From Myxococcota bacterium (GTDB lineage Bacteria > Myxococcota_A > UBA9160 > UBA4427), in contig JAYGCV010000010.1 in NCBI GenBank assembly GCA_046583195.1, positions 11,068 to 75,067 of the forward strand: 64,000 bases of DNA. The letters run 5' to 3'. Within the stretch, counting starts at the first letter, position 1; every line of letters begins with the position of its first letter. Below the pieces are notes generated by a model that saw only the letters and a list, made by a program, of their open reading frames with translations, searched no databases and had not been told where the DNA came from. Both the position numbers and the translations under genes were made by a program. Shown piece after piece: positions 11,192 through 58,951 of the stretch.

Positions 11192-13612
11192 ATGCTTCGA
11201 CGCACGCCGTCCTCGAGCCCGTACGCGCGAGGTCTGGGCTCGCTGCGCTCCTGGCTCGAGGCCGCGAAGCCCCTGCCGAACCACGGGCCCCAGCCGAACC
11301 ACGAGCCCGTGCCGAACGAAACCGCGAGTTCGGCACTCCGCGCGGAACTCTCCCTGCGCTGTCGCGCGCTGGCCGGCCTGTGTATCCCGCCTGCTTGCCG
11401 CGAAGCCCTCGAGGCGCTCGCAGCGTCCGCCGAGACCGTGGACGCGGCCTGGTCCCCGGTCTGCGAAGAGTCGATCGCCACTCTTGACGCGTTGGCAGCC
11501 GTTGCGGATGACTGGCTGGCGACGTCGCTCACCGTGCTGCGCGGCATCGGGCCCAAGCGCGCCGAGCAACTCGGGCGCCGCGGTTTGGGGTCGGTGGGGG
11601 ATCTGCTCTTTTCGTTGCCCGCAGGCTACGAAGACAGGCGCCGGCTGACGCCTCTCGCGGAAATCGAGGTCGGGCGACCCGCGACCTTCTTCGGTGTCGT
11701 TCGAGAGGTGCGCCGAATCCACTCGGGAAAGCGGGGCGGGGGGCTCGAGGTCGACGTCGAGGATGAGAGTGGGAAGGTGGTGCTCCGCTGGTTTCGCTTT
11801 GCCGACGGAATCGAGGAGCGTCTCGAAGTCGGGATGCGGGTCTGCGCTTCGGGCGAAGTGCGCCGGTATCGCTTCACGAAGCAGGTCGCCCATCCCGAAA
11901 TCGAGGTCTTGGGCCGGGCGGGGGCCGAGTTCGCAGAGAATGTCGTGCCGGAGCAGTTCCGGCGCATCGTGCCGCGTTATAAGGGTGGCCTGGGGCTTTC
12001 ACCGCTGTCCTTGCGACGCCTGACCGCGCTTGCGATCGAAGAGTTCAGCGATGTCGTCCCCGGCTATTGGAATCCGGGGGACACGCCGTCCGGGCTCGAG
12101 ATCGGGGCGGCCCTGCGCGAAGTCCACGCGCCCGCGATCGACTCGGATTTTGAATCGCTTGCCGGCAGGGAGTCCGAGGCCCACGCCCGGCTGATCCTCG
12201 AAGAGCTCTACCTCCTCGAACTCGGTCTGGCCCTGCGCAAGGAGAACGAGGCGCAGCGCCCGGGAATTTCGCTGCGCGCGACTGCGGGGCCGCCCGCTGC
12301 AGCAGAACTGCCCTTCGCACTCACCGGGGCGCAGGCGCGCGTTGTCGCCGAGATCACCGCGGACCTGGCAGCGCCTCATCCGATGAACCGGCTGCTGCAG
12401 GGTGACGTGGGCTGCGGCAAGACGGTGGTGGCGTATCTCGCAGTGTGTGTGGCCGCTGCCGCGGGACACCAGTCCGCCCTGATGGCGCCCACCGAACTCC
12501 TGGCCGAACAACATCTGCGTTCGCTGCGCCAGCTAATGGGCGAGAACTCGAACCTGCGGATGGCCGGACTGACGGCCTCGCGGCCCCGCGCCGAGGCCAC
12601 GGCGGTGCGCCGTGCGCTGGCAGCCGGCGAGCTCGATCTCGTCGTGGGCACCCACGCGCTGCTGCAGGAGTCGGTCCGCTTCGCATCGCTGGCGCTGGCG
12701 GTGATCGATGAGCAACACCGCTTCGGCGTACAGCAACGGGCGGCACTCGCAAAGCGCGGGCCCCAGGGCCTCGCGCCTCACGTGATGGTGATGACCGCCA
12801 CCCCGATTCCGCGCACCCTCGCGCTCACGCTCTACGGTGATCTCGACGTTTCGGTGATCGACGAACGTCCGCCGGGTCGCATGCCGGTCCGCTCGGAGAT
12901 CTTCCGGGAGGGGGAGGGCGAGGCGATCCTGGACCGCGTGAAGCAGACGCTCGCACGCGACGAGCAGGTCTTCGTGGTGTATCCGCTGATCGAGAAGAGC
13001 GAGAAGGTCGATCTTCGCAACGCCACCGAGTCGGCGCGCCGCCTGGCGCATGCTCTCGACGGTCCCCAGGTCGATCTGATCCACGGTCGCCTCGAGGCTT
13101 CGGTGCGGCAGGCGGCGATGGACCGCTTCGGAAGGGGTGAGACGCGAGTCCTCGTCGCGACTTCGGTCGTCGAGGTGGGCGTCGATATTCCGAATGCGAC
13201 CTTGATGGTGGTCGAACACGCCGAGCGTTTCGGCCTGGCCCAGCTGCACCAGCTGCGCGGCCGGGTGGGGCGCGGACAGCGCCCCGGCCATTGCCTCTTC
13301 GTTTCGCGTGGGGGGGGAGAGGACAGCGAGGCCCGACTTCGGGCGCTGGCGGAGACTGACGATGGCTTTCGGATCGCCGACGCGGATCTCCGGATTCGGG
13401 GCCCCGGAGAGTTTCTCGGCACGCAGCAGCATGGGGTTCTCCCCGATCTGCGTCTCGCCGATCTGGCACGCGACGCGCGGCTGCTCACGCGCGCACGCGA
13501 TGCCGCCTTTGAAAGGGTGCGCCTGGACCCGGGCCTCGCCGGGGATCCCGCGCTGCGCCGGGCGGTGGAAGAACACTGGGGCGACCGCATTGCCCTAAAG
13601 GACGTGGGCTAG
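11192..13612 (+). CDS. recG: ATP-dependent DNA helicase RecG
   Basis: Motifs: LRGIGPKRAEQL...YEDRR wedge region, Walker A GDVGCGKT, DEQHRFG box, TATPIPRTLAL, QLRGRVGRG. The start is uncertain: ATG 11192 is the first start after the carB stop, the track start 11108 overlaps carB, and the true start could be further downstream. Confidence 0.88.
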   Translation: MLRRTPSSSPYARGLGSLRSWLEAAKPLPNHGPQPNHEPVPNETASSALRAELSLRCRALAGLCIPPACREALEALAASAETVDAAWSPVCEESIATLDALAAVADDWLATSLTVLRGIGPKRAEQLGRRGLGSVGDLLFSLPAGYEDRRRLTPLAEIEVGRPATFFGVVREVRRIHSGKRGGGLEVDVEDESGKVVLRWFRFADGIEERLEVGMRVCASGEVRRYRFTKQVAHPEIEVLGRAGAEFAENVVPEQFRRIVPRYKGGLGLSPLSLRRLTALAIEEFSDVVPGYWNPGDTPSGLEIGAALREVHAPAIDSDFESLAGRESEAHARLILEELYLLELGLALRKENEAQRPGISLRATAGPPAAAELPFALTGAQARVVAEITADLAAPHPMNRLLQGDVGCGKTVVAYLAVCVAAAAGHQSALMAPTELLAEQHLRSLRQLMGENSNLRMAGLTASRPRAEATAVRRALAAGELDLVVGTHALLQESVRFASLALAVIDEQHRFGVQQRAALAKRGPQGLAPHVMVMTATPIPRTLALTLYGDLDVSVIDERPPGRMPVRSEIFREGEGEAILDRVKQTLARDEQVFVVYPLIEKSEKVDLRNATESARRLAHALDGPQVDLIHGRLEASVRQAAMDRFGRGETRVLVATSVVEVGVDIPNATLMVVEHAERFGLAQLHQLRGRVGRGQRPGHCLFVSRGGGEDSEARLRALAETDDGFRIADADLRIRGPGEFLGTQQHGVLPDLRLADLARDARLLTRARDAAFERVRLDPGLAGDPALRRAVEEHWGDRIALKDVG

Positions 13613-15081
13613 GGGGCCGCGCCGCCGGCGTCTTCTGCCGGAACCAGATAGCCGAGGGCTTCGAGGGTCGCGCGCAGCCCGGCGTTGATCTCGCCGGGGT
13701 CAATCACCACCAGGGGGTGCGCCTGAAGCAGGGCGTCGAGCACAGCCTTTAGTTCGGCGGCGACGGCGCTCTGCTCTGTTGCAGGGATCTCCGATTCGAG
13801 GGCGTCGGTGCGGAAGATGTCGACCCGATCGCCTCGACGCAGGTATTTGTAGTTTTCATTGACGACACCCACACCCACCTCGTCGATCAGGAGCGGCTCG
13901 AGGGGCACGCCGCCGACGCTGCGAATGCGCTCGGCGCGGCGAACCCGCGTTTGGGCGACACGGGGCTGGTAGAGCGGGTGCTCGAGCAGCAGGTTGCGCT
14001 GCAAGGAGCGGGCCTCCGCTGAATCAAGGGCGCTTCCGCTGGCGTTGGCGAGCGGGGCGAGTCCGGCGATCGAGAGCAGCGTCGGCGCGAGGTCGAGCGA
14101 ACTGGCGGGCCCGCGAGCGCGCGTCCCGGGGGCGAAGTGCGCGGGGTCGCGCAGGATCAGCGGAATTCGCGTCGCCCCCCGGTAGAGACAGTCGGCGTGC
14201 TCGAAGAAGACACGCCGCTCGAAGCACTCTCCGTGGTCGGCGGTGAAGGCCACCACCACGTTGCCGGATCCGTTGCGGCGATCGATTCCGGCGAGGAGCC
14301 TTCCGATCTGGGCGTCGGTGTACTCGACCTCGCGGCGGTACAGGGCGAGACCGTGGTCGACGATCTCCATCGGCAGGTCGCCGTCGCGTGTCGCTGCGAT
14401 CTCGCGCAGGATGCGCCAACTGAGAACCGGGTACTCGCCGTCAAGAGCACTCGCGGTTCCCGGGGTGGGCTTGGCCTCGTAGGGAAGGTGGGGATCAAAG
14501 AGGTGGACCCAGAGGAAGTAGGGTTGGGTTCGCGGGATCGTCTTCAGCCATGCGAGGGCCTCGTCGACGACCTCGACGCCGCGACGGTGCTTCTGCTCGG
14601 GCGAGGGGTTCGAAAAGACGGAGAAGCCCTGTGCGGCACCCGAGGCACGCGAGAGCAGCGCGACCCCTGTGAACCCGGCGGTCGCCCAGCCGGCTTCCGA
14701 GAAGCGCTCGGCGAGTGTCACCGCGGCGCTCGGCAACGAGAGCGCATTGTTGACGACGCCGTGTTCGCGCGGGTAGCGCGAGGTGAGGATCGAGAAGTGC
14801 GCCGGGCGGGTGAGGGGCATTGGGGTGACGGCGTGTTCGAACGTGATGCCCTCGCGGGCCAGTTGGTCGATATGGGGGGTGGCCGTGTTCTTTGCGCCGT
14901 ACGCGCCGACGTGGTCCGCGCGCAGCGTGTCCACCGTGATCAGCACGATTCCCGCTGCCGCCTCGGGTTCGGCGCGACAGCCGTAGAGGGCGGCGAGCGC
15001 GAGAGCGCAGGTCGCGAGCCACGCGAGCGCTCGAAGCGGGTTCCTATTTTCGCTCGTAGAACCGGACAACGTATTCTCCAT
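13609..15081 (-). CDS. Sulfatase-fold (alkaline phosphatase superfamily, PF00884-like) lipoprotein, Thr-type active-site motif (paralog S1)
   Basis: Signal peptide with lipobox ALAALYGC. Motifs: VDTLRADH metal site; PLTRPAHFSILTSRYPREHG aligned to the sulfatase CxPxRxxxLTG box but with T..H; FTADHGE; NYKYL; C-terminal LEALGYL tail. Confidence 0.8.
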   Translation of the reverse strand: MENTLSGSTSENRNPLRALAWLATCALALAALYGCRAEPEAAAGIVLITVDTLRADHVGAYGAKNTATPHIDQLAREGITFEHAVTPMPLTRPAHFSILTSRYPREHGVVNNALSLPSAAVTLAERFSEAGWATAGFTGVALLSRASGAAQGFSVFSNPSPEQKHRRGVEVVDEALAWLKTIPRTQPYFLWVHLFDPHLPYEAKPTPGTASALDGEYPVLSWRILREIAATRDGDLPMEIVDHGLALYRREVEYTDAQIGRLLAGIDRRNGSGNVVVAFTADHGECFERRVFFEHADCLYRGATRIPLILRDPAHFAPGTRARGPASSLDLAPTLLSIAGLAPLANASGSALDSAEARSLQRNLLLEHPLYQPRVAQTRVRRAERIRSVGGVPLEPLLIDEVGVGVVNENYKYLRRGDRVDIFRTDALESEIPATEQSAVAAELKAVLDALLQAHPLVVIDPGEINAGLRATLEALGYLVPAEDAGGAAP

Positions 15082-16582
15082 CGGGGACCGCGATCTCTAC
15101 CCGGGCGTATCGATTGGCAAGGCGCGGGGCCAGTTCGTAGCGGCCGGGCCAGACGAACGCCTGGGGTTCGACGCCTTCGACGAGTCGCGCAGCAGTTGCC
15201 TCGATCGACTCGTTTTCGTCGAGGGCGTGGTAGCGATGGCTCGGCACGTTCAAGTAGACGATGTCGAGCGGATTGCGGTGGCGCATCAGGAAGAGGATCT
15301 CCGCCGACGCCAGGGCGACGAAGGGTTGGCCGGCGAGCCGTTCGCGCAGTGCGCGAGCCACCGCGCGCTGTTCCGAGAGCGTGACGCTCGCCGGGACGTG
15401 GGCGGTGGTGAGGTTGGTTTCGGGTCGGAGAAAGAAGGGACGGCCGAAGGCGACCGCGACGACGAGGATCGCCGTGGCCGCGGCCGTCGCGCCAAAGGCA
15501 TGGTGGCGGCTCAGTGCAGCGAAGCAGCGCGTCCAGACGATCCCGAGCCAGAACGCGGCCGTGGCCATGAGGACGTAGAAGTCCGGGAAGCGCTGAAAAT
15601 CCACGAGACTGAAGCCCAGGATCGCGGTGTGATAGACGCAAAGGGGCAGGAGCAGCCGGCCGGCAGCGCTGGAACCTTCGCGGCGCAGCCAGAGCCACGA
15701 AAGCGGAAGGCCCAGCAGCGAAATGGCCAGCAGGAAGCGTTCCGAGAGGCCCATGCGGGTCGTGGTCCAGCCAAAGCGTGCGATGCGGTCGAGGGTGCTG
15801 ACCGATTCGGTGCTCTCGGCGGCGCGAGCCAACGCCATGGCGAAGGTCTGCTCGACCGCCGCGCCGAGGGCGCCGTTGGCTGCGAAGTAGAGGATGAGGG
15901 GGAGGATGCCCACCAGCGCTCCGCCGATCAGCCGGAGTGTGTTGCGGGCCCAGTGTTCTCCCGAGGCGAGGGCGGCCACGAAGGCGGCGAGTCCGACCAG
16001 ACCCCCCACCTGCCAGTCGAGGAAGGCAAGGGCGCTGCAGGCGCCCGCCGCGAACCAGGCCCGTCGCGCCACCGCCAGGGCCATGGCGGAGGCCAGCACG
16101 ACCATCAGCAGTTTCGGAAAGTTCCCGATCGCCGGCAGTTCACCGAGGATCCCGAAGCTCCCAAAGGCGGCGAGCCCCAGGAAGCCCGCCACTGTACTGC
16201 CGCGGGAAAGGCGCCGGAAGATCCAGAAGGAGAGCAACCCCCCAAACGCCGACAGGCCCAGCGTCGAGATCCGGATGGCCTGGAGCGGATCCTGACCCAG
16301 GATCTCGCCCAGCCGAAAGATCCCGGCGGCGAGCAGGCTCGACAGGAAGGTCTTGTTGTCGAAGAGGTCGAGGTGCGGGACCGCACCTTCGGCAATCTGC
16401 CAGGCGAAGTAGAGGAAGTAGCGGACGTCGGTTCGGATCGGCGTTTCGGCCTCGAAGAAGAGCCCGAAGTGGAGCGCCGACAGAGCCAGTGCAAGCGCGG
16501 TGAAGAGTGCCGGTTGCGATGCCGATGCGCCGGGAAAGTCACCGGCCGGCAACGAATCCCCAGCGGACGTCGAGGCCGCCAT
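15044..16582 (-). CDS. Polytopic membrane protein, GT-C-like putative glycosyltransferase with C-terminal periplasmic domain (G1)
   Basis: About 12 hydrophobic segments, a first-loop acidic/aromatic motif TDVRYFLYFAWQ, and a ~150 aa soluble tail. The preferred start is ATG 16582, preceded by GGGGGGA; the maximal ORF starts at ATG 16684 without an SD. The 3' end overlaps S1 by 38 nt. Confidence 0.55.
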   Translation of the reverse strand: MAASTSAGDSLPAGDFPGASASQPALFTALALALSALHFGLFFEAETPIRTDVRYFLYFAWQIAEGAVPHLDLFDNKTFLSSLLAAGIFRLGEILGQDPLQAIRISTLGLSAFGGLLSFWIFRRLSRGSTVAGFLGLAAFGSFGILGELPAIGNFPKLLMVVLASAMALAVARRAWFAAGACSALAFLDWQVGGLVGLAAFVAALASGEHWARNTLRLIGGALVGILPLILYFAANGALGAAVEQTFAMALARAAESTESVSTLDRIARFGWTTTRMGLSERFLLAISLLGLPLSWLWLRREGSSAAGRLLLPLCVYHTAILGFSLVDFQRFPDFYVLMATAAFWLGIVWTRCFAALSRHHAFGATAAATAILVVAVAFGRPFFLRPETNLTTAHVPASVTLSEQRAVARALRERLAGQPFVALASAEILFLMRHRNPLDIVYLNVPSHRYHALDENESIEATAARLVEGVEPQAFVWPGRYELAPRLANRYARVEIAVPDGEYVVRFYERK

Positions 16583-16757
16583 TTCATCCCCCCGGCGCAT
16601 CAGCTTAGCAGGAGGGATTCGCAGGCGGCGTTCGTGGTCTTGGGGGTGGCGATTGAAGGAAGAGGGCGCGGAGTCGGATATCATTCATGGATCGGGGTCG
16701 CTTACGGGTATCGCAGTCGGTCGGCCGAGGGGGTGAGATGATCCGAGACGGTCGGGC

Positions 16758-18197
16758 ATGGGCTCGGCCTCGCCGCAGTGGGCGGCGAGGAGCGCCAGCG
16801 TGAGCGCACGACTCGAGCGCTCGGGAGTCTTTGCGCTTGCTCTCCTGGGGATCACACTGGCCGCCATTGGCATCCGCGTGCTCGCTCTCGAAGCCGGCGG
16901 GACGCTGCTGGCGACCGGCGATGAGGACTACTACTTCCAGACCGCCGTGGAAATTGCGCGTGAGGGCCGCCACCTGTACCCGCCCCGCGGCGCCCTTGCC
17001 GAGTGGCCCCCGGGCTACCCCTACTTCCTCTCGCTCTTCGTTCCTGGCGGGTCCGAGGTTTCCGCCGAGGCCATCGTCGCAAGGCTCGTCGCGGCCCAAA
17101 TCGGGCTCGGAGGTTTGTTGGTCGCACTCTGCGGCGTATTGGGCCGGGCCTGGTTTGGCGCCCGGGAAGGCCTCGTCGCGGCGTCCCTCGCGGCGCTCTA
17201 CCCGAATTTCGTGGTGTTCAGCCACTACCTCTTCTCCGAGACGCTCTTTTCCGCGCTGATCCTCGTAGCGCTGCTCGGCGTCGTGCGATTCGAAGAGCGC
17301 CCGACTGCGGGAGTGCTGGTGCTTTCAGGGGTCGCGCTCGGCTTGGCGACCCTGACCCGCGAACTCGCGCTGCCGGTTGCCGGAGTCTGCGCCGCCTGGT
17401 GGGTGTTTCGCGCGTCGCCCGGGGCGCGCCCGCGTGCAGTCGGTCATGCCATCGCACTGCTGGCGGTGATCGCGGCGATCGTGGTTCCGTGGACCCTGCG
17501 CAATGACCGGGTTCTCGGGAGCCCGGTATTGGTATCGAACGCGGGCTGGCTCAATCTTCGGTCGGGAAACTCGCTTTCCGAGACGGATTGGATGCGGCCT
17601 GCGGGTTTCGAACTGGAGGCCTTTCGGCGCACCTACTTTGCGATACCGGATGAGATGGAGCGCGCAGACTATGCCCGCTCCCAGGCCCTGGTACTGATTG
17701 GAGAGGAACAACCCGCCTGGATCTTCAAGAAGGCCGTGCGAACCGCTGCGCTCCTGGCCAGCCCAGATTCCTACCTCTTCAAGAAGATCAGTCGCGGGGC
17801 CTACCCGGAGCTCGGCCCGGACGCCATCCGGGTGCTGCTCGTGGTGGTGCCCGCCAGTACCCTCGTCCTCCTGCTGCTGGCGTTGCCCGCGTGGGCCGCG
17901 GATCGTCGGCGCGGCCGCCGCGAACTGGTGGCGACCCTCGCGCTCGCGGTCTTTGCGATCCACCTGTTGGCGAATGCATCGGTCCGCTATCGGCTGCCGT
18001 GGATGCCCCTGGCGGTGCTCTACGCGGCATCGATGCTCAGCGATCCTCGGCGCGTGCTGGCGTCGATCGGGACGCGATCCCGCGCCGGTGTGGCCGTGCT
18101 TGGGCTGTTGTTGCTGCTGACCGGAGTCCCGTACTTCTGGCCCGATGCGGTGTCGCTCTTTGAAACCGGTCGCTACCGCGAAGCCATGCGACCGTGA
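16758..18197 (+). CDS. ArnT/PMT-type (GT39/GT83-like, PMT_2) membrane glycosyltransferase (G2)
   Basis: First periplasmic loop GDEDYYFQTAVEIAREG (DE motif of GT-C enzymes), WPPGYPYFLSLF, and ~11 TM segments. It is divergent from G1. Confidence 0.75.
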   Translation: MGSASPQWAARSASVSARLERSGVFALALLGITLAAIGIRVLALEAGGTLLATGDEDYYFQTAVEIAREGRHLYPPRGALAEWPPGYPYFLSLFVPGGSEVSAEAIVARLVAAQIGLGGLLVALCGVLGRAWFGAREGLVAASLAALYPNFVVFSHYLFSETLFSALILVALLGVVRFEERPTAGVLVLSGVALGLATLTRELALPVAGVCAAWWVFRASPGARPRAVGHAIALLAVIAAIVVPWTLRNDRVLGSPVLVSNAGWLNLRSGNSLSETDWMRPAGFELEAFRRTYFAIPDEMERADYARSQALVLIGEEQPAWIFKKAVRTAALLASPDSYLFKKISRGAYPELGPDAIRVLLVVVPASTLVLLLLALPAWAADRRRGRRELVATLALAVFAIHLLANASVRYRLPWMPLAVLYAASMLSDPRRVLASIGTRSRAGVAVLGLLLLLTGVPYFWPDAVSLFETGRYREAMRP

Positions 18198-19774
18198 GAC
18201 ATTCGCAACGCAAGAGTCGACGGCGGTCGGTTGCGTTCTGCGCCGGCTGGCTCCTGGCGTGCAGCCTTTGCGCGGGTTGCCAGCCAGCGCCGGAGGAAAC
18301 CTCGGGGCCCCGGCGGATCATCCTTCTCAGCATGGACACCGTGCGCGCCGATCACGTCAGCGGGTACGAAGGGGCGACGACGACCCCGGTGCTCGCGGAG
18401 ATTGCCGAGGAGGGTGTGCGGCTCCAGGATTTCTACGCCGCCTCGAGCTTCACGCTGCCTTCGCATATGTCGATTTTCACGGGACTCGACCCGGCTGAGC
18501 ACGGCGTCTTTCGGGAGGAGGCGGAACTCGATCGCCGCATCCCGACGCTGGCAGAAACCCTGGGAAAGGCGGGGTATGCAACCGCGGCATTCCACGAAGG
18601 GGGATACGTGTCGCCGCGCTACGGGTTCGGGCGCGGCTTCGATCGCAGTCTTGAGTTTTCGCGTCTCGAGCTGGTGTCCGGGTCGCTTTCGCGTGTCACC
18701 GACTGGATACGCGCGCATCGCGGCGACCGCTATTTCCTCTTCGTGCACACCTACGCAGCGCATTTCCCGTACGGCGGATGGCAGCGCCACCGCAGCCGCG
18801 GCGTGGGAGCCGAGCGTTTCGAGCCGCGGCGGCTCGAGGCACTGCGCCAGCGCTTCGATTCGGCCCACGCCGAGCGCCGTGAGGGGCGCGCCCCCGAGCG
18901 CATCGGCGACGCGCTGCGGGCGGACTGTACGCTCTTTAATCAACTTGCTGAACACCACGGCGAGCTTCTCGGCTGCGGTGACAACTTCCTGAGTGCGGAG
19001 TACCTCGACCCGGTCCACGGCGGCGAGGACCTGGCGGCGGTTCGCGAGAGCTACGACGAGCGCATCCGGCGGATCGATGCCGCGCTCGGCCGCATTCGCG
19101 AGACGCTTCGCGATCTTGGCGAATGGGACGACACGCTGCTGGTGGTGACGGCCGATCACGGCGAGGCGTTTCTCGAGCACGGCCAATCTCAGCACGACTA
19201 CATCCCCTTCGACGAGGTCCTGAAGGTCCCCGCGGTCTGGTCGTGGCCCCGGGGCTTTGGGGAAACGGGGGGGCGCGAAGTCGAGGGCGCGACCTGGCAT
19301 CTCGACCTGATGCCCACGATCCTGGGCCTGTCGGGGGTCGCCTATCCGGGCCGCGCCCGGGGTCTTGACCTCTCTCAGGTGCTGAAGGGCGAGCGCGAGC
19401 TGGCGGCAGAGCGCACGGTGCATCCCGCGGTGCTGCGCCTGGCCCACCGCGAACCCCGTGCCGAGCGCCGCGTCGCGGTGCGGGGCAACTGGAAGTACAT
19501 CGAGGGGGATGCGCTCTTCGGAGATTCCGAGGGGCTGCTCTTTGACCGATCGCGGGACCGGCAGGAGAGGGTGAATCTGCGCCAGGAGGAACCCGAAGTC
19601 TTTCAGTCGCTAGAGGCCGAGAGTCTGCGCTGGCGCAGGGGGCTAGAGGCATCGTCTGCGCGCCATCGCCACAGCGGCGCACCCCTGCCGGGTGACCCCC
19701 TGGCGCCGGTCCCCGCGGTGTCGCTGACGCCCCAGGAGCGGCAGCAACTCCGGGAACTCGGCTATGTCGACTGA
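18194..19774 (+). CDS. Sulfatase-fold lipoprotein, Thr-type motif (paralog S2)
   Basis: GTG 18194 overlaps the G2 stop (GTGA). Motifs: lipobox region WLLACSLCAGC; MDTVRADH; SSFTLPSHMSIFTG (T87 at 18452-18454); VTADHGE; NWKYI; ends QLRELGYVD*. Confidence 0.82.
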   Translation: MRHSQRKSRRRSVAFCAGWLLACSLCAGCQPAPEETSGPRRIILLSMDTVRADHVSGYEGATTTPVLAEIAEEGVRLQDFYAASSFTLPSHMSIFTGLDPAEHGVFREEAELDRRIPTLAETLGKAGYATAAFHEGGYVSPRYGFGRGFDRSLEFSRLELVSGSLSRVTDWIRAHRGDRYFLFVHTYAAHFPYGGWQRHRSRGVGAERFEPRRLEALRQRFDSAHAERREGRAPERIGDALRADCTLFNQLAEHHGELLGCGDNFLSAEYLDPVHGGEDLAAVRESYDERIRRIDAALGRIRETLRDLGEWDDTLLVVTADHGEAFLEHGQSQHDYIPFDEVLKVPAVWSWPRGFGETGGREVEGATWHLDLMPTILGLSGVAYPGRARGLDLSQVLKGERELAAERTVHPAVLRLAHREPRAERRVAVRGNWKYIEGDALFGDSEGLLFDRSRDRQERVNLRQEEPEVFQSLEAESLRWRRGLEASSARHRHSGAPLPGDPLAPVPAVSLTPQERQQLRELGYVD

Positions 19775-21614
19775 GGGTCGGATGCGAGTGAGTTCCTCGA
19801 TGCGAGCGGTGCTGCTGGTCTCGCTGCTGGGGAAGCTTGGGCTCGCGTGGTGGTTCGCGGATCTCGAGCCGCATTACGACGAGCGCCAATTCTTGCGGCA
19901 GGCCCAGGCGCTGGCGGGCGGAGCGGGTTTCGAGTCGTTCTTCCGAGCCCCCGGCTACACGCTTTTCATGGCGGCCGGGCTGTGGCTGGGAGGCGGCCAC
20001 GTCATCGGCGTGCGAATCCTGCAGGTGCTCTTGTCGACGGCCACCGCTTTTCTCGCCTACCGGATCGGCCGAAGCGAGTGGGGAGAACGGGCGGGATTCT
20101 GGGCCGGGTTGCTGGTGGCCTTCTATCCGAGTCAGATCGCGTTCTCGCACTGGCTTTGGGCGGAGACCCTCTACACGGCGCTAATCCTGCTGGCCTTCGA
20201 GCGCCTGCTCGCGCTCGATCGGAGTGGCGGGCGATCTACGGCGGTCGTCGCGGGTCTCTCGCTGGCGGCAGCATCGCTGGTCCGGTCGACGGGGCTGGGG
20301 CTGCTCGTGTTATCGGTCGGATGGCTCGCCTGGCGCTGGCGACAAGGCACGGGAAAGGCGTCGCTGCGGCTGATCGGTCTCCTGTTGGCGGTTGCAATCG
20401 GTGTGGTCGCAAGCTGGTCGATTCCGGCATCCCAGCGGGCGGACTGTCTCGTGGTCGTCGATCTGAACGGCCCCTTCAATCTTTGGAGTGGCAACGCGGC
20501 GGAGATCCCGGAGGGCCTTCCGGGCCTGTTTGGGGTCGGGCTTCCCCTCGACGTGCCGCTCGATTCGCGGGTCTCCGAATTTCGTCCCTTTGATGCCTGG
20601 CGTGCCGAACTCCCCGGACGGCTTGCTGCGGCCGGGGTCGAGGAGCGCTTTGGCTGCGATGGCGCCGCCTGGTTTCGAGACCAGGCCCTCTCGGACATTG
20701 CGAAGGCTCCGGGAGCCTTCCTGGCTCGCATCCCGGTGAAGCTCGCGGCCTTCTGGTCGCCGGATTTCTTCGTCGCGCGTCACCTGCTGCGGGGCTGGTA
20801 CGGGGAGGGGCCAGGCGGCGTGGCTCTCTTGCTGGTGTTGCTCACGCTGGCCGCGGCCTGTATTCCGCTGCTCGCTGGCCCCGTGGGCCTCGTTGCCGCG
20901 CCGCCCTCGCGCTTCCGCTCCCTCGCGCTTTTCTGGATCGGCCTCTACCTCGCCGTCCACGCGCTCACCTTCGGTGTGAGTCGCATGCATTTCCCGCTGG
21001 TGCCGCTCCTCCTCCTTGCGGTGGTGGGGGCCAGTGAGGCGCTTCGCGGGGGCGGTGCGGGCGAGATCCGGCGGCGCGCCCTGCGGCGAGGCCTTCCTCT
21101 TGGGGTCGGGATCGCCGTGGCCTGGGCGCTGATCGCGCCGCTCGTCATCGGGCTCTACGTCGCCCCGGCGCCGCAACAGGCCGCGTTGCTTCGGAGTGTT
21201 GCAGGCTTGCGCCACTGGCCGACCCCGGGGAGCGAGTTCCTGGCCTGGCACCTGGCGAGCGTCGAAGCCTCGCTCGGAAACGAGGCGCGCGCGCGTGAAG
21301 TCCTCGACGAGCCCGGGATACGAGAGCGGGGCTTCAGCCGCTACCTGCGGGCTCGCCTGTCTCCGCTTCCCGACCGGGGCGAGGACGAACTGCGGCAGTT
21401 GGTCGCCGCCGAAGGGGACGGGGGTGGCGTGCCGCGCTTCGCCGCCCTGGTCTCGTTGGCGCGACTCGAACTCGAGCGGGGAGACCTCGATGCGGGCCTG
21501 CGAAGCCTGCGTGCCGCGCAGTCGATGCGTCCGGACGACGGGGGGATTACGGCTGCCATTCAAGAGGTGGAAGCGGCGCGCGCATCGGCGAAGCCTGCGA
21601 TCGGCGCTCCGTGA
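19764..21614 (+). CDS. ArnT/PMT-type membrane glycosyltransferase with C-terminal TPR-like repeats (G3)
   Basis: Motifs: HYDERQFLRQAQALAGG first-loop DE motif, APGYTLFMAA, multiple TM segments, and a C-terminal ~150 aa helical repeat region (LARLELERGDLDAGLRSLRAAQ). ATG 19764 overlaps the S2 end by 11 nt; ATG 19782 is an alternative start. Confidence 0.75.
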   Translation: MSTEGRMRVSSSMRAVLLVSLLGKLGLAWWFADLEPHYDERQFLRQAQALAGGAGFESFFRAPGYTLFMAAGLWLGGGHVIGVRILQVLLSTATAFLAYRIGRSEWGERAGFWAGLLVAFYPSQIAFSHWLWAETLYTALILLAFERLLALDRSGGRSTAVVAGLSLAAASLVRSTGLGLLVLSVGWLAWRWRQGTGKASLRLIGLLLAVAIGVVASWSIPASQRADCLVVVDLNGPFNLWSGNAAEIPEGLPGLFGVGLPLDVPLDSRVSEFRPFDAWRAELPGRLAAAGVEERFGCDGAAWFRDQALSDIAKAPGAFLARIPVKLAAFWSPDFFVARHLLRGWYGEGPGGVALLLVLLTLAAACIPLLAGPVGLVAAPPSRFRSLALFWIGLYLAVHALTFGVSRMHFPLVPLLLLAVVGASEALRGGGAGEIRRRALRRGLPLGVGIAVAWALIAPLVIGLYVAPAPQQAALLRSVAGLRHWPTPGSEFLAWHLASVEASLGNEARAREVLDEPGIRERGFSRYLRARLSPLPDRGEDELRQLVAAEGDGGGVPRFAALVSLARLELERGDLDAGLRSLRAAQSMRPDDGGITAAIQEVEAARASAKPAIGAP

Positions 21615-23188
21615 GTGCGTGCTACCTTGCGTGGATGCGGGGGGCGAGTGCCGCACGGGGCACACGGGTATTTGTGTGGGTCTTCTCGGCGGCCGCGTTC
21701 GCGGCCTTCGGTTGTGGTACCGGCGATTGCGGTCCCCCGAGTTCCGGCGACGCTCGGGCGCCGAACATTCTCTGGGTCGTCTGGGATACGGTGCGGGCGG
21801 ATCGGATGAGCCTCTACGGCCACTCTGTCGAGACGACGCCGGAGCTCGACCGCTGGGCCCGCGGCGCGCGGGTCTACCGGGACGTGGTATCGGCGGCGAG
21901 CACCACCGAGCCGGCTCACGCCTCGATGTTCACCGGGCTCTACCCGTCGCAGCACGGAACCGACGCCGACCACCGCTGGCTCTCGGAAGACTTCGACACC
22001 CTGGCCGAACGGCTCAGCAGCGCGGGCTACCGCACCTACCTGTGGTCGGCGAATCCCAGTATTTCCGCCGACGAGAACTTCCACCAGGGCTTTGATCGCG
22101 TCGAGCATCCGTGGGACGAGCACTACCGCACGGCGGCGCGCTGGGTGGTCGAACGCAAGGTGGCGGACGACCGCAGCAGCGAATTGCATCGACGGCTTGC
22201 GCGCGGGAGCGCCGGGCCCTGGGCGATCAAGGCCGCCGGTGAGTTGGTCGCGGGGGCCCTGGAGCGCTGGCTCGGGGACTCGTCGTCAGACCAACCCTGG
22301 TTTGCGGTCCTCAACTACATGGAGGCGCATCGCCCGCTGGTGCCCGAGCGACACTTTCGCGAGCGCGTGATGCCGCCGGAGATGGTCGAGCATTCCTACG
22401 CCGTCGACCGGACCTGGATCGGCATGTGGGAATACACCACGGGGCTTCGTGATCTCGACGCCCGCGATCTCCGCGCCATCCAGGGGACCTACGATGCCGC
22501 GATCCTCGAACTCGATGGGCTCTTTGCCGATCTGCTCGACTCGCTCGAAGCCCACGGCGATCTCGAGAACACCATGGTGATCCTGACCGCCGACCACGGC
22601 GAACTGCTCGGCGAGAACCATATGCTCGACCACCAGTTCTCACTCCACGGCGCGCTGGTTCGCATTCCCCTCGTGATCCACTTTCCAGCCCGCTTCGAGC
22701 CCGGCGTCGAAACCAGGCCAGTTAGCAATATGGATCTCTACCCGACGTTGCTCGAAGTCGCGGGAGTCGAAGCCGGCGCGTCGAATTCGAAGGCCGTGAG
22801 CCTGCTCAACCCGCCTCCGCAGCGCGCGCGTCTGGCCGAGTACACCGCCGCCAACCTGCGGACCCTGCGTACGCTGGCCGAGGTCCATCCCGAGTTCGAT
22901 CCTGCGCCCTTTGGGCGCACGCTGAAGGCGCTCTACGTAGAGGGATGGAAGCTGCTGCGCTCCTCGGAGGGCGAGTTCGAACTCTTCGACCTCGAAGCCG
23001 ACCCGTCTGAAGAGGTCGACGTGTTCGCACGAGAGACCGAGCGGGGCAGGGTGCTGCAGCAGCGCCTCGAGGCCCTGGTGGTCGAACTCGGGAGCGCCCC
23101 GACAAGAAGCCCCGAAGGGCTCCTGGCCCCCACCGCCGAGAAGCGCGAGATGCTCGAGAGCCTCGGCTACCTGGCTCCGGAGAAATAG
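21611..23188 (+). CDS. Sulfatase-fold lipoprotein, Thr-type motif (paralog S3)
   Basis: GTG 21611 overlaps the G3 stop (GTGA). Motifs: signal peptide with AAFGC; WDTVRADR; ASTTEPAHASMFTG (T99 at 21905-21907); LTADHGE; GWKLL...ELFDLEADPSE; ends MLESLGYLAPEK*. Confidence 0.82.
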   Translation: MSACYLAWMRGASAARGTRVFVWVFSAAAFAAFGCGTGDCGPPSSGDARAPNILWVVWDTVRADRMSLYGHSVETTPELDRWARGARVYRDVVSAASTTEPAHASMFTGLYPSQHGTDADHRWLSEDFDTLAERLSSAGYRTYLWSANPSISADENFHQGFDRVEHPWDEHYRTAARWVVERKVADDRSSELHRRLARGSAGPWAIKAAGELVAGALERWLGDSSSDQPWFAVLNYMEAHRPLVPERHFRERVMPPEMVEHSYAVDRTWIGMWEYTTGLRDLDARDLRAIQGTYDAAILELDGLFADLLDSLEAHGDLENTMVILTADHGELLGENHMLDHQFSLHGALVRIPLVIHFPARFEPGVETRPVSNMDLYPTLLEVAGVEAGASNSKAVSLLNPPPQRARLAEYTAANLRTLRTLAEVHPEFDPAPFGRTLKALYVEGWKLLRSSEGEFELFDLEADPSEEVDVFARETERGRVLQQRLEALVVELGSAPTRSPEGLLAPTAEKREMLESLGYLAPEK

Positions 23189-23190
23189 CC

Positions 23191-24696
23191 TTGCCGCAGC
23201 TTTCTGTCAGGCCGTGCCGATTCCAACGCTCGCATTCGCGGCGGCGTCGCGGCCGCGCCACGGCCGTCGCGTTCGTGCTCGCGGCCGGGCTGCTTTCGTG
23301 CGGAGGTGCGGACCGCGCGCCCTCGGCTACGGGGGCGAACGTCTTCGTAATCGTGATCGACGCGGCGTCCGCCTTCTACTTCGGGTTCCACGGCGACGTG
23401 CATGACACCAGTCCGAATTTCGACCGACTGGCAAGGGAGTCGGTGGTCTTTGAAAACGCCTACAGCCAGTCGGCGACCACTGTGCCCTCGACCGCGAGCC
23501 TCGTTACGGGGGTTCGGGTGATGACCCATCGACTCGATTCGTTCTCGGTTCTCCCCGAGGCGTTTCCGACCGTGGCGGAACTCTTTGCCGAGCAGGGTTA
23601 CCGGAGTTTCGCCTTCATCGGAAATCCACACGCCGGCGCGCCGGAACTCGGGCTCACCCGGGGCTATGACACGAGCGCACTGGTCTACGCAACAAAGGCG
23701 GGCCCGGAAACTTCCCCCGACGAGCGGAAGCGACTAATGCGCGTGCAGCCCGCGGATATGGAACGCTCGATTGCAGAGCTCCTCCCAGAGTTCGGGGCGG
23801 GCGGGACCTACGCCTACTTCCACTACCTGCAACCGCATAAACCCTACGACGCCCCAGCGTCCTACCTGCGCGACGATGGCGACAACTGCCTCTGCGAAGG
23901 CGAACCCTGCGCCTGTGGCGATGTGCCCTGGGACGCCATCCACGACGAATTCCTGAAGGCCAACGAAACCGGCGTGGCGACGCCGTCGGTGATTCATCAT
24001 CTCGAAGCGCGCTACCGGGCGAACATCCGCTTCGTTGACGAGGCGCTTGCGAGCCTCCTGGCAATGCTGCGTGAGCGCGGGCTCTACCAGGACGCGCTGA
24101 TCGTCGTCACCTCGGACCACGGCGACGCCTTCTTCGGTCACCAGCGATTCGGGCACAATCGCACGCTCTACGACGACATGGTGAGGGTCCCGCTGCTGAT
24201 GAAGTTTCCAGCGGGGGCCGGGGTGTTACCCCGGCGGATCCCGGCGCTCACCGAGACGGTCGATGTGATCCCGACGATCTTCGATTTCCTTGGTTTTCCG
24301 ATGTCGCCCGGGTGGGAGGGCGAGAGCTTGTGGCCTTTGATCTCGGAGGGCGGGGAAGTCATCGCGCCGGCACACCGCGAGGTCATTCTGGCGACGAACC
24401 GCCGCGACAAACAGGCCATTCGGGTCGACGATTACAAGTACATCGTTTCGATCGAGGGGCCGGAAGAACTCTACGACCTGAAGAACGACCCGGGCGAAAC
24501 GCGAAACCTCGCGCAGAAGAGTCCCCTACGCGTGGCAGAACTGCGTCGCCGCCTGCGGGCGGGGGTTTCGAACGCGAGGACAGAACCGGCTCGCGAGGCC
24601 AACGACCTGCGCAGCGATCCCGAGATGAACGCCCTGCTCGAAGCGCTCGGATACGTCGAAGGGCCTGCGCCGGGGCGGGCAGAGGCCGAGCGCTGA
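23191..24696 (+). CDS. Sulfatase-fold lipoprotein, divergent Thr-type motif (paralog S4)
   Basis: Starts 2 nt after the S3 stop (TTG). Motifs: Arg-rich n-region plus lipobox GLLSC; VIDAASA in place of DT[LV]RAD; SATTVPSTASLVTG (T97 at 23479-23481); VTSDHGD; DYKYI...ELYDLKNDPGETRNL; ends LLEALGYVEG...*. Confidence 0.8.
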   Translation: MPQLSVRPCRFQRSHSRRRRGRATAVAFVLAAGLLSCGGADRAPSATGANVFVIVIDAASAFYFGFHGDVHDTSPNFDRLARESVVFENAYSQSATTVPSTASLVTGVRVMTHRLDSFSVLPEAFPTVAELFAEQGYRSFAFIGNPHAGAPELGLTRGYDTSALVYATKAGPETSPDERKRLMRVQPADMERSIAELLPEFGAGGTYAYFHYLQPHKPYDAPASYLRDDGDNCLCEGEPCACGDVPWDAIHDEFLKANETGVATPSVIHHLEARYRANIRFVDEALASLLAMLRERGLYQDALIVVTSDHGDAFFGHQRFGHNRTLYDDMVRVPLLMKFPAGAGVLPRRIPALTETVDVIPTIFDFLGFPMSPGWEGESLWPLISEGGEVIAPAHREVILATNRRDKQAIRVDDYKYIVSIEGPEELYDLKNDPGETRNLAQKSPLRVAELRRRLRAGVSNARTEPAREANDLRSDPEMNALLEALGYVEGPAPGRAEAER

Positions 24697-26247
24697 TCAG
24701 AGGATGGCTTCGATCAGCGTGGGTCCGGAGGTCGACAGGGCGCGTTCGAGGGCCTGCTCGAAACCTTCAGCGTCGGTCACGCGCTCGGCGGGAACGCCGT
24801 AGCCACGCGCCAGCGCGCTCCAGTCGAGTTCCGGTTCGGTCAGCTGTGTGAGCGAACGCGAGGCGGCTCCCGGTTCGCTGATTCCGGCGCGGGCCATTTC
24901 GATCTGCAGGATGCGGTAGCTGCGATTCGAAAAGAGCACGACGGTGACATCGAGGGATTCGCGCGCCAGGGTGAAGAGGGCCTGCAGCGTGTACTGGGCG
25001 CTGCCGTCCGCCTGCAGCGAGAGCACCCGCCGGTCGGGACAGGCGAGGGCGGCTCCGGCGGCGCAGGGAAGCCCCTGGCCGATGGCGCCGCCCGTCAGCG
25101 TGAGGACGCTGTGGTGTGGGCCACGGGCGGTGGCCGCGTAGAAGGGCAGGCCGCTGGTGGCGGCTTCGTCGATCACGATCGCGTTCTCGGGAAGGCAGCG
25201 CGCGATCGCTGCCGACAGGGCCACCGGATCCAGGGAGCTGCCCGCCCCAGCGGCGACGGGCGCTGAAGGCGGAGGCCCCGGACCCCCGTAGGCAGCGGCC
25301 CCGACCTCGTCCGCCAGCGCCTCGAGGGCGGCCGCCGACCCGAGTTGGGGTTCCGAGAGGAGCACCGGAGCCGCCGCCGGGGCCAATTCCGACGCCTGCC
25401 CCGGGTAGCCGAAGAAGGCCACCGGTGCGCGTGCACCCGCGAGGATCAAGAGGTCGAGATCGGCCAGGGCTTCGCGCGCGGCTTCGGGGAAGTAGGGCAG
25501 GCGCTCGAACGCGGGGAGGTCGCCGCCGCGTTCCCAGCGAGCCGGGAAGGTCTCGATCCAGAGCTTTGCGCCGACCGCGCTGGCGATTCTCGCCGCGGCC
25601 CGCTGGGCGTCGGCACCGAGGGCGTCGCTTCCCAGCAACAGCCCACAGCGAGAACTCGCTCGCAGGCGACGCGCGACCTCGAGAATTCGTTCGTCCGTCA
25701 CGCGGGGGGCCGAGGCCGCCGTGATCGGCGGGGCCGGGGGCGGCCCTTCTCCCCACTGCACGTCGGCGGGAATCACGAGGCTGGCGACGCCGCCCCCGGC
25801 GGCCTTGGATGCCGCGATGGCCTCCGCGGTGTCGGTGCCGAGGTCGCCCGGTGCGCGGCAGTGGCGGAACCAGGTCGAGACCGGGCGCGCCAGCGATTCG
25901 ATGTCGGAGTGCAGCGGGGAGTCGAAAGCGGCGTGGGCGCGGGTGTGGTCCCCGATGAGGTTCACCACCGGGGTGCGGGCGCGGCGGGCGTTGTGCAGGT
26001 TGGCAATCGAATTCGCGAAGCCCGGCCCGAGGTGGAGCAGGGTCATGGCCGGCTGGCGCCGCATGCGGCCCCAACCGTCGGCGCAGCCGCTGCAAACCCC
26101 CTCGAAGAGTCCGAGGACCGGGCGGATGCCCGGACTGCGGTCGAGCGCTGCGACCAGCGGCATTTCGGTGGTTCCGGGGTTCGCGAAGCAGATCTCGACG
26201 CCGCTCGCGAGGGCGGTTTCGAGCAGAGAATCGGCGGCAGTCGGCAC
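24697..26247 (-). CDS. Thiamine-pyrophosphate-dependent enzyme (acetolactate synthase / benzoylformate decarboxylase family)
   Basis: N-terminal TPP pyrimidine-binding region ICFANPGTTEMPLV...GCADGWGR. C-terminal TPP diphosphate-binding region GAIGQGLPCAAGAALA...LQADGSAQYT...NRSY. Convergent with S4; the two stop codons abut (TGATCA). Confidence 0.8.
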   Translation of the reverse strand: MPTAADSLLETALASGVEICFANPGTTEMPLVAALDRSPGIRPVLGLFEGVCSGCADGWGRMRRQPAMTLLHLGPGFANSIANLHNARRARTPVVNLIGDHTRAHAAFDSPLHSDIESLARPVSTWFRHCRAPGDLGTDTAEAIAASKAAGGGVASLVIPADVQWGEGPPPAPPITAASAPRVTDERILEVARRLRASSRCGLLLGSDALGADAQRAAARIASAVGAKLWIETFPARWERGGDLPAFERLPYFPEAAREALADLDLLILAGARAPVAFFGYPGQASELAPAAAPVLLSEPQLGSAAALEALADEVGAAAYGGPGPPPSAPVAAGAGSSLDPVALSAAIARCLPENAIVIDEAATSGLPFYAATARGPHHSVLTLTGGAIGQGLPCAAGAALACPDRRVLSLQADGSAQYTLQALFTLARESLDVTVVLFSNRSYRILQIEMARAGISEPGAASRSLTQLTEPELDWSALARGYGVPAERVTDAEGFEQALERALSTSGPTLIEAIL

Positions 26248-42035: not shown

Positions 42036-42250
42036 CACCCGCAACAATGGCTTGAGTACCGCGGTTTACGAAGCAAAGGCCAATCAACGGCCCACGCATC
42101 GCGGCTTCCGGCTACCGGGGGGGAGGAGGATCGACACGTGCGATCCAGCACCCCTCGAACGTGGACGGCGGACTCGGAGTCTGTCCGATCTACGAGCCAG
42201 AAGCTTACGGCTGTAGCACTCGGGCCATTCTAAGAGGGGGTGACCCAGAA

Positions 42251-57606: not shown

Positions 57607-57682
57607 GGGCGCGTAGCTCAATTGGCAGAGCAAGGGACTCTTAATCCCTAGGTTCGGGGTTCGATTCCCCGCGCGCTCACCA
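57607..57682 (+). tRNA. tRNA-Lys (anticodon CUU), CCA encoded
   Basis: Manual cloverleaf: acceptor GGGCGCG/CGCGCTC (one G-U pair), D arm GCTC..GAGC, anticodon arm AGGGA-CTCTTAA-TCCCT, T arm CGGGG-TTCGATT-CCCCG, then A-CCA. Confidence 0.9.
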
Positions 57683-58864: not shown

Positions 58865-58951
58865 GCCCGGATGGCGGAACTGGCAGACGCTCAAGATTTA
58901 GGATCTTGTGTCCGAAAGGACGTGCGAGTTCGAATCTCGCTCCGGGCACCA
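58865..58951 (+). tRNA. tRNA-Leu (anticodon UAG), long variable arm, CCA encoded
   Basis: Acceptor GCCCGGA/TCCGGGC, anticodon arm CAAGA-TTTAGGA-TCTTG, variable arm GTCCGAAAGGAC, T arm GCGAG-TTCGAAT-CTCGC, then A-CCA. Confidence 0.9.

Follow-up and report, generated by a model that had tools for sequence, protein, structure and literature searches.

Why would a bacterium interleave, gene by gene, membrane glycosyltransferases and lipoproteins that databases call sulfatases? This question is raised by a stretch of 64,000 nucleotides from a marine Myxococcota genome (contig JAYGCV010000010.1 of assembly GCA_046583195.1), which we will call the window. Positions 13609–24696 of the window hold seven consecutive genes: four of them (S1–S4) encode lipoproteins with the fold of Pfam family PF00884, and the other three (G1–G3) encode GT-C glycosyltransferases. 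The S and G genes are interleaved and form two divergent arms, with S1 and G1 on the minus strand and G2, S2, G3, S3, and S4 on the plus strand. All seven open reading frames lie where the original prediction, which was made from the letters of the sequence, had placed them, and their GC content at third codon positions (0.75–0.83) is of the coding type.

We propose that G and S proteins form a conserved bipartite periplasmic module, in which a GT-C glycosyltransferase would work together with a phosphoesterase that has a threonine nucleophile, and that this module is iterated here and acts on one envelope glycoconjugate. We give this reading a probability of about 0.5.

Conservation of the G–S pairing

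The whole cluster, with the same flanking genes, is present in Myxococcota XB_MAG98 (locus L003, 52–66% identity) and in a second locus (L006, 44–59% identity) that has one additional S1 paralogue. Three more loci (L002, L015, and L020) hold parts of the cluster. The orthologues of S1 (in L003, L006, and L015) are 47–56% identical and those of S4 are 54–66% identical. Housekeeping genes flank the cluster in every orthologous locus. We also found isolated G2–S2 pairs in three unrelated neighbourhoods and in both gene orders: G precedes S with a 4-nt overlap in L004, S precedes G with an 8-nt gap in L011, and S precedes G with a 4-nt overlap in L067. Neither a new genomic context nor a swap of the gene order has thus broken the adjacency. 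The metagenome-assembled genome behind L004 (CAYTZH010000011.1; 69–74% GC) is labelled as "uncultured Spirochaetales," and its G2–S2 genes are 42–51% identical to those of the Myxococcota. This genome may be mislabelled taxonomically or wrongly binned.

Scanning contigs with a narrow alignment of G2 gave 3 loci, and scanning metagenomes with an alignment of G1 gave 53 loci. An S gene lies within 3 kb of the G1-family gene in 23 of the 26 loci whose flanks total at least 3 kb, and in 16 of the 17 whose flanks total at least 5 kb. Among the G1-family loci that lack an S gene, all but one have another partner, an arylsulfotransferase-like lipoprotein. Starting from the other side, a polytopic membrane protein adjoins the S2-family gene on all four of the long contigs that we sampled (L011, L012, L066, and L067). 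We also tested for recurrent partners by clustering all open reading frames of at least 90 amino acids from these loci against each other. Only the S, G/arylsulfotransferase-like, and GT2 families recur across loci, and no flippase family recurs among open reading frames of this size.

The partners are also found as fusion proteins. In protein P0274, G1 is joined in frame to an S domain through a linker that is rich in Ser, Thr, and Pro; in P0225, G1 is followed by an L-x-x-L-G-Y motif (discussed below) and then by an arylsulfotransferase-like domain. Neither protein has a signal peptide between its domains. In-frame fusions of G1 to the arylsulfotransferase-like domain are also encoded at L021:3816-6836, L030:2721-4664, L031, and L032:628-3456. 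Two other candidate G–S fusions were rejected as frameshift artefacts: P0013 is from a low-coverage assembly, and P0223 has a linker that looks out of frame and retains the lipobox. In the fusions, the partner comes after the C terminus of G1, on its periplasmic side. Fusions and adjacency together strongly indicate a joint function of G and its partner, which are probably in contact. The adjacency of G and S genes, on which the original prediction depended, is conserved in orthologous clusters, in isolated G2–S2 pairs, across the G1 family, and in the in-frame fusions, and the pairing is seen in many uncultured bacteria.

The alternative partner is a β-propeller lipoprotein of about 450 amino acids (PF14269/PF05935). 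It adjoins G1 in 23 loci: an example is L033:6570-7922 (minus strand), and others include L007, L018, L021, L022, L024, L030, L034, L035, L039, L043, and L047–L052. It is absent from the window. In relatives, it can take the place of the S partner that was originally proposed for each GT-C. A third recurring component is a GT2 protein of about 230 amino acids (PF00535), which is encoded directly upstream of G1 homologues at L008:9261-9968, L022:7285-7974, and L058:1460-2134. By its size and family, it is likely to be a polyprenyl-phosphate-sugar synthase, and its position supports a lipid-linked monosaccharide as the donor.

Within the window, all five junctions between neighbouring genes of an arm are tight, as was originally described, and they force translational coupling at just two of the five. 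G1 and S1 overlap by 26 or 38 nt (with S1 starting at 15069 or 15081), and G2 and S2 overlap in a GTGA. These two overlaps are obligatory because no alternative start codon lies before the signal peptide. The S2/G3 junction ranges from –11 to +14 nt, depending on which start is chosen for G3 (19764, 19782, or 19788), and the G3/S3 junction is either GTGA or +21 nt (with S3 starting at 21611 or 21635; the ATG at 21635 gives the better signal peptide). At S3/S4 the junction is +2 nt, and the charged n-region of S4 requires the TTG at 23191. The NCBI gene calls for a near-identical contig use shorter starts at these last three junctions. G1 itself most likely starts at 16582, which gives a protein of 512 amino acids and has a GGGGGA Shine-Dalgarno sequence; its homologues have about 505 amino acids. 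The further claim that each GT-C is co-translated with its own S partner is too neat, as there are four S genes and three G genes here, and the relatives have one to five S genes. The pairing, the overlaps, and the fusions strongly link, at the level of the genome, a GT-C to a phosphoryl-transfer enzyme of the periplasm, which would be a new accessory component of extracytoplasmic glycosylation.

Several neighbours of the wider families deserve mention in their own right. The S2-family genes in L012:7001-14443 and L066:3634-8554 abut unannotated polytopic membrane proteins of 505–566 amino acids; one of these has a weak match to DUF6798 and one has a weak similarity to G3. We considered whether the 507-amino-acid neighbour in L012 belongs to the G1 family and rejected this: hhalign gave a probability of 7.8%, which is not significant, and BLAST gave a weak hit to G3 (E = 3e-4). 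The pair in L012 is followed by three more genes with the sulfatase fold and one for an MsbA-like ABC transporter. In L008, a pair of ABC transporter genes follows G1. At L009:8001-10423, the overlapping neighbour of a distant PMT_2 homologue (about 33% identical to G2) is a gene for a GH10 glycoside hydrolase instead of an S gene, and GT-Cs of the wider clade may pair with other periplasmic enzymes.

Functional residues and a shared terminal motif

All three G proteins are members of the GT-C superfamily, as originally proposed: G1 by its fold, G2 by Pfam, and G3 by its homology to G2. G1 (15044..16582, minus strand) is a polytopic protein of 512 amino acids that has no sequence match in Pfam, NCBIfam, or PDB. 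We built an AlphaFold2 model of G1 from 46 homologues (predicted local distance difference test score [pLDDT] of 93.6 and predicted template modeling score [pTM] of 0.92). When this model was compared to PDB with Foldseek, the top 28 matches were all GT-C proteins, with a probability of 1.00. They include ArnT (5ezm, which is the best match), human and yeast STT3, AftA, PglB, ALG9/ALG12, and Pmt4. The likeness of G1 to ArnT is at the level of the fold only, as none of G1–G3 matches the ArnT model of NCBIfam; indeed, no protein of the cluster reaches the NCBIfam cut-off for ArnT or EptA. Asp52 of G1, within the first-loop motif TDVRYF (16415–16432), is invariant in 46 sequences. The C-terminal part of G1 is a soluble α/β domain of about 110 amino acids, not the tail of about 150 that had been predicted.

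G2 (16758..18197, plus strand) matches PMT_2 with 31.7 bits (cut-off 26.1) and PMT with 25.1 bits (cut-off 22.7), is annotated as GT39, and has no sequence match in PDB. Its first-loop motif is GDEDYYF (16917–16937), in which Asp55 is invariant in 20 sequences and Glu56 is invariant in the 12 closer ones; PPGY is at 17007–17018. G3 (19764..21614, plus strand) is 29% identical to G2 (E = 4e-17), and its PMT_2 score of 24.8 bits is slightly below the 26.1-bit cut-off. In G3, YDERQF (19875–19892) occupies the equivalent place in the first loop, and APGY is at 19947–19958. The GT39 protein mannosyltransferases have MIR domains, whereas G2 combines PF02366 with PF13231, and Pfam identified no MIR domain in any of G1–G3. 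G3 also has a short TPR-like region at its C terminus, where the original prediction had seen repeats: just one TPR_14 unit is detectable, and its position is common to three G3 orthologues (19.7, 22.1, and 27.7 bits versus a cut-off of 23.5). This unit is below the threshold in the window's G3 and above it in the orthologue from L006.

A profile search against 1.84 billion cluster representatives found 636 clusters (at 50% identity) for the G1 family with E ≤ 1e-30. With roughly 600–1100 clusters, G1 represents a sizeable family of GT-Cs that has no Pfam model or any other family model.

Turning to the S proteins, Pfam and the lipobox pattern agree that S1 (13609..15081, minus strand), S2 (18194..19774, plus strand), S3 (21611..23188, plus strand), and S4 (23191..24696, plus strand) are lipoproteins with a PF00884 core, which bears out the original prediction. 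The E values for PF00884 (Sulfatase) range from 1e-37 to 1e-47 (9e-41 for S1, 1e-46 for S3, and 5e-37 for S4), and matches to SGSH_C were found among these proteins as well. A lipobox is predicted in all four (by a PROSITE PS51257-style pattern), with its cysteine at residue 23–37 of the longest open reading frame; the lipobox reads LYGC at its end in S1 and LLSC in S4, and most sequences in an alignment of the S2 family have a cysteine there. Apart from the lipoprotein signal peptide, the S proteins have no transmembrane domain of their own. They are old paralogues, with pairwise identities of 25–29%, and S4 is the divergent one.

Despite their annotation, we think that these proteins are not sulfatases. 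When S proteins are aligned to the sulfatase 5g2v, they have a threonine at the position of the formylglycine and a histidine at the position of the motif's arginine. The sulfatase motif C/S-x-P-x-R is replaced by T-x-P-x-H/T in all four: TRPAH in S1 (14797–14811), TLPSH in S2 (18452–18466), TEPAH in S3 (21905–21919), and TVPST in S4 (23479–23493). Across 120 proteins of the S family, the nucleophile threonine is invariant, and Asp48, Thr87, His190, Asp321, His322, and His334 (in S2 numbering) are all invariant or nearly so. S1–S4, including the divergent S4, keep every one of these residues, and the Asp-His pair is seen within ADHGE in S1 (14227–14241), S2 (19151–19165), and S3 (22589–22603) and SDHGD in S4 (24112–24126). 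Given that the catalytic residues are kept, all four proteins look like active enzymes with a threonine nucleophile.

S1–S4 match PF01663 (Phosphodiest) with 38–65 bits versus a cut-off of 23 (E = 3e-17 for S1), and the best-matching stretch is the N-terminal 60–70 residues or so in S1 and S2, residues 57–330 in S3, and residues 272–311 in S4. These matches arise because the N-terminal DT[LV]RAD and T-x-P-x-H of the S proteins correspond to the NPP signature. The NPP-type pattern D-x-x-R-x-D plus T-x-P-x-H is kept in S1 (DTLRAD, 14914–14931), S2 (DTVRAD, 18335–18352), and S3 (DTVRAD, 21785–21802), and S4 deviates (DAASAF, 23359–23376, and TVPST). Together with the G motifs given above, this accounts for all of the motifs quoted in the original prediction: GDEDYYF, YDERQF, TDVRYF, PPGY/APGY, DT[LV]RAD, and [AS]DHG[ED]. 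Residues 288–342 of S3, around DHGE...H, have weak matches to NCBIfam models of phosphoethanolamine transferases and MCR and to the MCR-1 and MCR-2 chains in PDB. The scores of the S proteins for the EptA, MCR, and LtaS models of NCBIfam are 15–43 bits, versus cut-offs of 500–1250. The AlphaFold2 model of S2 (pLDDT 93.3) nevertheless has the fold of S1 sulfatases (a sulfatase class, not our S1 protein) and phosphonate monoester hydrolases, with Foldseek TM scores of about 0.6, and a profile of the S family finds the sulfatase scaffold in PDB with E values down to 1e-39. From the motifs, we infer that the S proteins make or break a phosphoester instead of a sulfate ester. The original prediction of phospho-chemistry fits the threonine motif, and its substrate and reaction are putative.

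The S proteins also share an unexpected element near their C termini. S1 has LEALGY (13648..13665, minus strand; it continues as LEALGYLVP) 12 residues before the stop codon; S2 ends with LRELGY (19748..19765, plus strand), VD, and the stop codon; S3 ends with LESLGY (23153–23170, plus strand) and APEK after a further Leu; and S4 has LEALGY (24637–24654, plus strand), continuing as LEALGYVEG. Near a terminus, the motif is confined to these four among the proteins of the window. In the S2 family, L..LGY is found within 45 residues of the C terminus in 111/120 proteins, and usually it is exactly 2 residues before the stop; it is also conserved in the orthologues of S1. The L, L, G, and Y are 95–98% conserved in the 120 S-family proteins, which is on a level with the catalytic residues. 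The residues before the motif, [S/N/D]-x-E-E-x-x-x, resemble a capped amphipathic helix.

The same motif (...SRAEVERLQALGYVDV...) is also found in the arylsulfotransferase-like lipoproteins, at their N termini, right after the lipobox. In the fusions of G1 to arylsulfotransferase-like domains it is in the linker, and in the G1–S fusion P0274 it is retained at the C terminus. The motif is thus common to both types of partner, which the original prediction had not noticed. In the model of S2, the tail has a pLDDT of 92–95, so it is predicted to be ordered, and the motif helix has a pLDDT of about 86. Possibly, this tail packs against an S domain in cis or trans, as is the case for the C-terminal arms of phosphonate monoester hydrolases and choline sulfatase. 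The LGY motif is also a simple handle for finding all members of these families.

A proposed two-part module and its alternatives

In the mechanism that we favor, the locus would comprise three to four copies of a two-part periplasmic module. G, in the inner membrane, would take a sugar from a polyprenyl-phosphate-sugar donor, and S, which is anchored to a lipid, would use its threonine nucleophile to make or break a phosphoester on the same envelope glycoconjugate. G and S would be a physical unit at the periplasmic face, and the terminal L-x-x-L-G-Y helix would be an assembly element that is common to the periplasmic partners. The complex, the order of the two reactions, and the target are all inferred. 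As for the target, our guess, which we hold with low confidence, is by analogy lipid A, the core of lipopolysaccharide (LPS), or another outer-membrane glycolipid, which would either exchange a phosphate for a sugar or be decorated with both a sugar and a phospho-substituent. This guess is based on the LpxE/LpxF plus RgtA-D/RgtF system of Rhizobium and on GacL plus GacH of streptococci. Should it act on LPS or lipid A, the module could explain phosphate-poor, sugar-substituted outer membranes in marine bacteria.

One close precedent was not mentioned in the original prediction. The rhamnopolysaccharide of streptococci is modified by GacI/GacJ (GT2), GacK (a flippase), GacL (a GT-C), and GacH (a PF00884 glycerol-phosphate transferase), and SccN/SccH of S. 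mutans are alike. As we propose here, GacL adds a sugar from an undecaprenyl-phosphate-sugar outside the cytoplasm, the polymer so modified also receives a phospho-substituent from the PF00884 enzyme, and both are encoded in one locus. However, GacH has its own multi-transmembrane domain, is not a lipoprotein, and is built on the scaffold of LtaS, while the S proteins are lipoproteins on a sulfatase/SGSH_C scaffold. Also, GacL and GacH are a single pair in a Gram-positive host, with no LGY motif and no fusions, as opposed to the iterated array here. For lipid A, Rhizobium combines the phosphatases LpxE/LpxF with RgtA-D (GT-C) and RgtF (GT2), and enterobacteria combine ArnT with EptA. These systems also join a phosphoesterase or phosphotransferase at the periplasmic face to a GT-C that uses a polyprenyl-phosphate-sugar made by a GT2. 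But LpxE and LpxF are PAP2 proteins, EptA has a transmembrane domain, and the genes are not in overlapping pairs, whereas the S proteins belong to the alkaline-phosphatase superfamily.

Three-component systems of the GtrA/GtrB/Gtr type (PMC11127046) resemble our loci in that a GT-C uses a lipid-linked monosaccharide donor, as the GT2 beside G1 in L008, L022, and L058 would provide. These systems co-encode a GT2 and a GtrA-like flippase, neither of which is in the window, and a review of them names no partner from the alkaline-phosphatase superfamily and no arylsulfotransferase-like partner (PMC11127046). Compared to enzymes of known function, the S proteins share the two-domain scaffold and the PH.P and D-H-G positions of S1-class sulfatases and phosphonate monoester hydrolases (5g2v, 4uph, 2vqr, and the choline sulfatase 6fny), but they have Thr in place of the Cys- or Ser-derived formylglycine, His or Thr in place of Arg, a lipobox, and the LGY C terminus. 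With LtaS, EptA, MCR-1, and OpgB they share a Thr nucleophile, a weakly similar DHGE...H segment, and action outside the cytoplasm at a membrane surface, but they lack the intrinsic domain of 5 transmembrane segments of the LtaS and EptA types; instead, the membrane partner is a separate GT-C with at least 9 transmembrane segments. Neither the NCBIfam scan nor the literature searches matched the cluster to a characterised pathway, in keeping with the original prediction, and full-text searches found no description of a GT-C/S pairing or of the L-x-x-L-G-Y motif. The superfamilies of the parts are known, as are precedents for co-operation between a GT-C and a PF00884 enzyme. What appears to be undescribed is a soluble, lipid-anchored partner with a Thr nucleophile on a sulfatase scaffold, its coupling and fusion to a GT-C, the arylsulfotransferase-like partner, the G1 family, and the LGY motif.

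Several observations weigh against the two-part module. No gene for a GT2, a flippase, or nucleotide-sugar synthesis was found anywhere in the 64-kb window, which confirms the original statement that donor-synthesis genes are lacking there. Distant homologues of G2 (about 30% identity; P0018 and P0019) are not adjacent to S genes, so the pairing is specific to a clade and is not general to PMT_2 proteins. The arylsulfotransferase-like alternative partner is ill-suited to a simple phosphatase role, and the overall scaffold of the S proteins most resembles that of phosphonate monoester hydrolases and true sulfatases. Finally, since P0274 keeps its LGY motif, and since the motif of S2 is modelled with a pLDDT of about 86, the motif may interact with the S domain and not with G.

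What else could these genes do? The scaffold (PF00884 plus SGSH_C), the carbohydrate sulfatases among the nearest solved structures, and database names such as "sulfatase" and "arylsulfatase A-like" would suit ordinary sulfatases that degrade sulfated marine polysaccharides, with the GT-Cs as unrelated neighbours by chance or synteny. We consider this very improbable: the replacement of C/S-x-P-x-R by T-x-P-x-H/T is seen in S1–S4 and family-wide, the adjacency outlasts changes of context and order, and fusions exist. It is ruled out by the motif at the nucleophile and by the conservation of the pairing. Nor does the cluster encode a glycoside hydrolase, SusC/D, a transporter, or a maturase; more broadly, no Radical_SAM (anSME) or FGE-sulfatase maturase domain was found among the window's open reading frames that were scanned, and a maturase may be encoded elsewhere in the genome. 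For proteins of this kind, with a threonine nucleophile and no formylglycine motif, the name "sulfatase" is probably chemically wrong in hundreds to thousands of annotations from Myxococcota and other uncultured phyla. The absence of a transmembrane domain from the S proteins brings up a different idea. In LtaS, EptA, OpgB, and GacH, an N-terminal multi-transmembrane domain presents the lipid donor to the PF00884 domain, and here the GT-C might be the membrane, lipid-presenting half of a split transferase of this kind: the lipid that G presents would be a polyprenyl-phosphate-sugar or a phospholipid, and the acceptor would receive from S a phospho-linked group such as sugar-1-phosphate, phosphoglycerol, or phosphoethanolamine. 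P0274 has just this layout, with a polytopic membrane domain and then a periplasmic PF00884 domain, and S keeps the Thr nucleophile and a DHGE segment that weakly matches phosphoethanolamine-transferase and MCR models and the MCR-1 and MCR-2 chains. Yet G keeps the first-loop Asp or Asp-Glu that is typical of active GT-Cs, the GT2 beside G1 in relatives argues for genuine sugar transfer by G, and the arylsulfotransferase-like partner sits badly with this idea. We think that a split transferase is improbable.

Alternatively, the GT-Cs might be protein glycosyltransferases, similar to PMT or TMTC enzymes, that act on the neighbouring lipoproteins, with the LGY motif as a sequon or recognition element. 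Their target would be its invariant Tyr or a residue close by, and the S and arylsulfotransferase-like enzymes would have an unrelated job for which they need this maturation. A motif that is on two unrelated folds, at opposite termini, and always beside a GT-C is what this idea would lead one to expect, as is the conservation of its Gly and Tyr (about 98%, like catalytic residues). G2 belongs to GT39/PMT_2, and G3 has a TPR-like tail, as TMTC enzymes do. Another GT-C, TfpW, is encoded beside its own protein substrate, a pilin. Against this, fusions of an enzyme to its substrate are unusual, and G1 is fused to both S and arylsulfotransferase-like domains. Tyr is the only invariant hydroxyl in the motif, and to our knowledge none of the GT-Cs modifies Tyr. 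Just upstream of the helix, S, N, D, or T can be found, which is like an N-cap and not like an acceptor, and AlphaFold2 predicts an ordered tail instead of a free peptide. On balance, we think that protein glycosylation is unlikely.

Returning to the two-part module, the motif suggests a broader and more speculative form of it. The LGY helix might be a portable targeting or assembly tag of a hitherto unrecognised class of periplasmic enzymes, each of which docks on a dedicated GT-C or needs it for maturation, and the GT-C and the tagged enzyme would together perform a coupled reaction without a characterised precedent; we offer this tentatively. The tagged class would include the Thr phosphoesterases on a sulfatase scaffold and the arylsulfotransferase-like propellers, and the G1 family would be a new subfamily of GT-Cs that is specialised for such partners. 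The coupled reaction could be, for example, the transfer of a glycosyl-phosphate or a sulfo- or phospho-sugar onto an outer-membrane glycolipid, or, alternatively, a GT-C-dependent modification of the invariant Tyr.

Setting of the cluster and other features of the window

The GC content of the window is 64–71%. The window is 99–100% identical to a contig of the Myxococcota metagenome-assembled genome GCA_046583205.1 and to two marine metagenome contigs from the Joint Genome Institute. An exact look-up of G2 with its long start gave no record; its counterparts are 99% identical in GCA_046583205.1 and 100% identical in the Joint Genome Institute contigs. The cluster is flanked on the left by carA/carB/recG and on the right by genes for a thiamine pyrophosphate (TPP)-dependent enzyme, an H+-pyrophosphatase, and an amino-acid permease. 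Elsewhere, the window carries housekeeping genes, namely lepA, homoserine dehydrogenase, an HtrA-like protease, mgtE, murJ, oxoprolinase, and tig-clpP-clpX-lon. There are no arn genes in the window.

Scans with Rfam and for tRNAs found nothing inside the cluster, and a scan for promoters and terminators found nothing that exceeded the expectation from shuffled sequence. By its geometry, the divergent intergenic region between G1 and G2 (16583..16757, 175 nt) is the presumed site of the promoters of both arms; a sigma-70 consensus was looked for there and not found. At the left end of the cluster, the stop regions of S1 and the convergent recG overlap by 4 nt (13609–13612), and at the right end, the stop codon of S4 abuts that of the convergent TPP-enzyme gene with no spacer (24696–24697). 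With convergent housekeeping genes abutting both ends, there is no room for terminators.

Two other regions of the window stood out. Positions 42161–42484, between genes for an AMP-binding enzyme and a T2SSE/PilT-like ATPase, have an atypical GC content by codon position on both strands, and Rfam identified no RNA family there. Just upstream of tig-clpP-clpX-lon, a tRNA-Lys(CTT) at 57607–57682 and a tRNA-Leu(TAG) at 58865–58951 bracket a gene for a luciferase-like monooxygenase.

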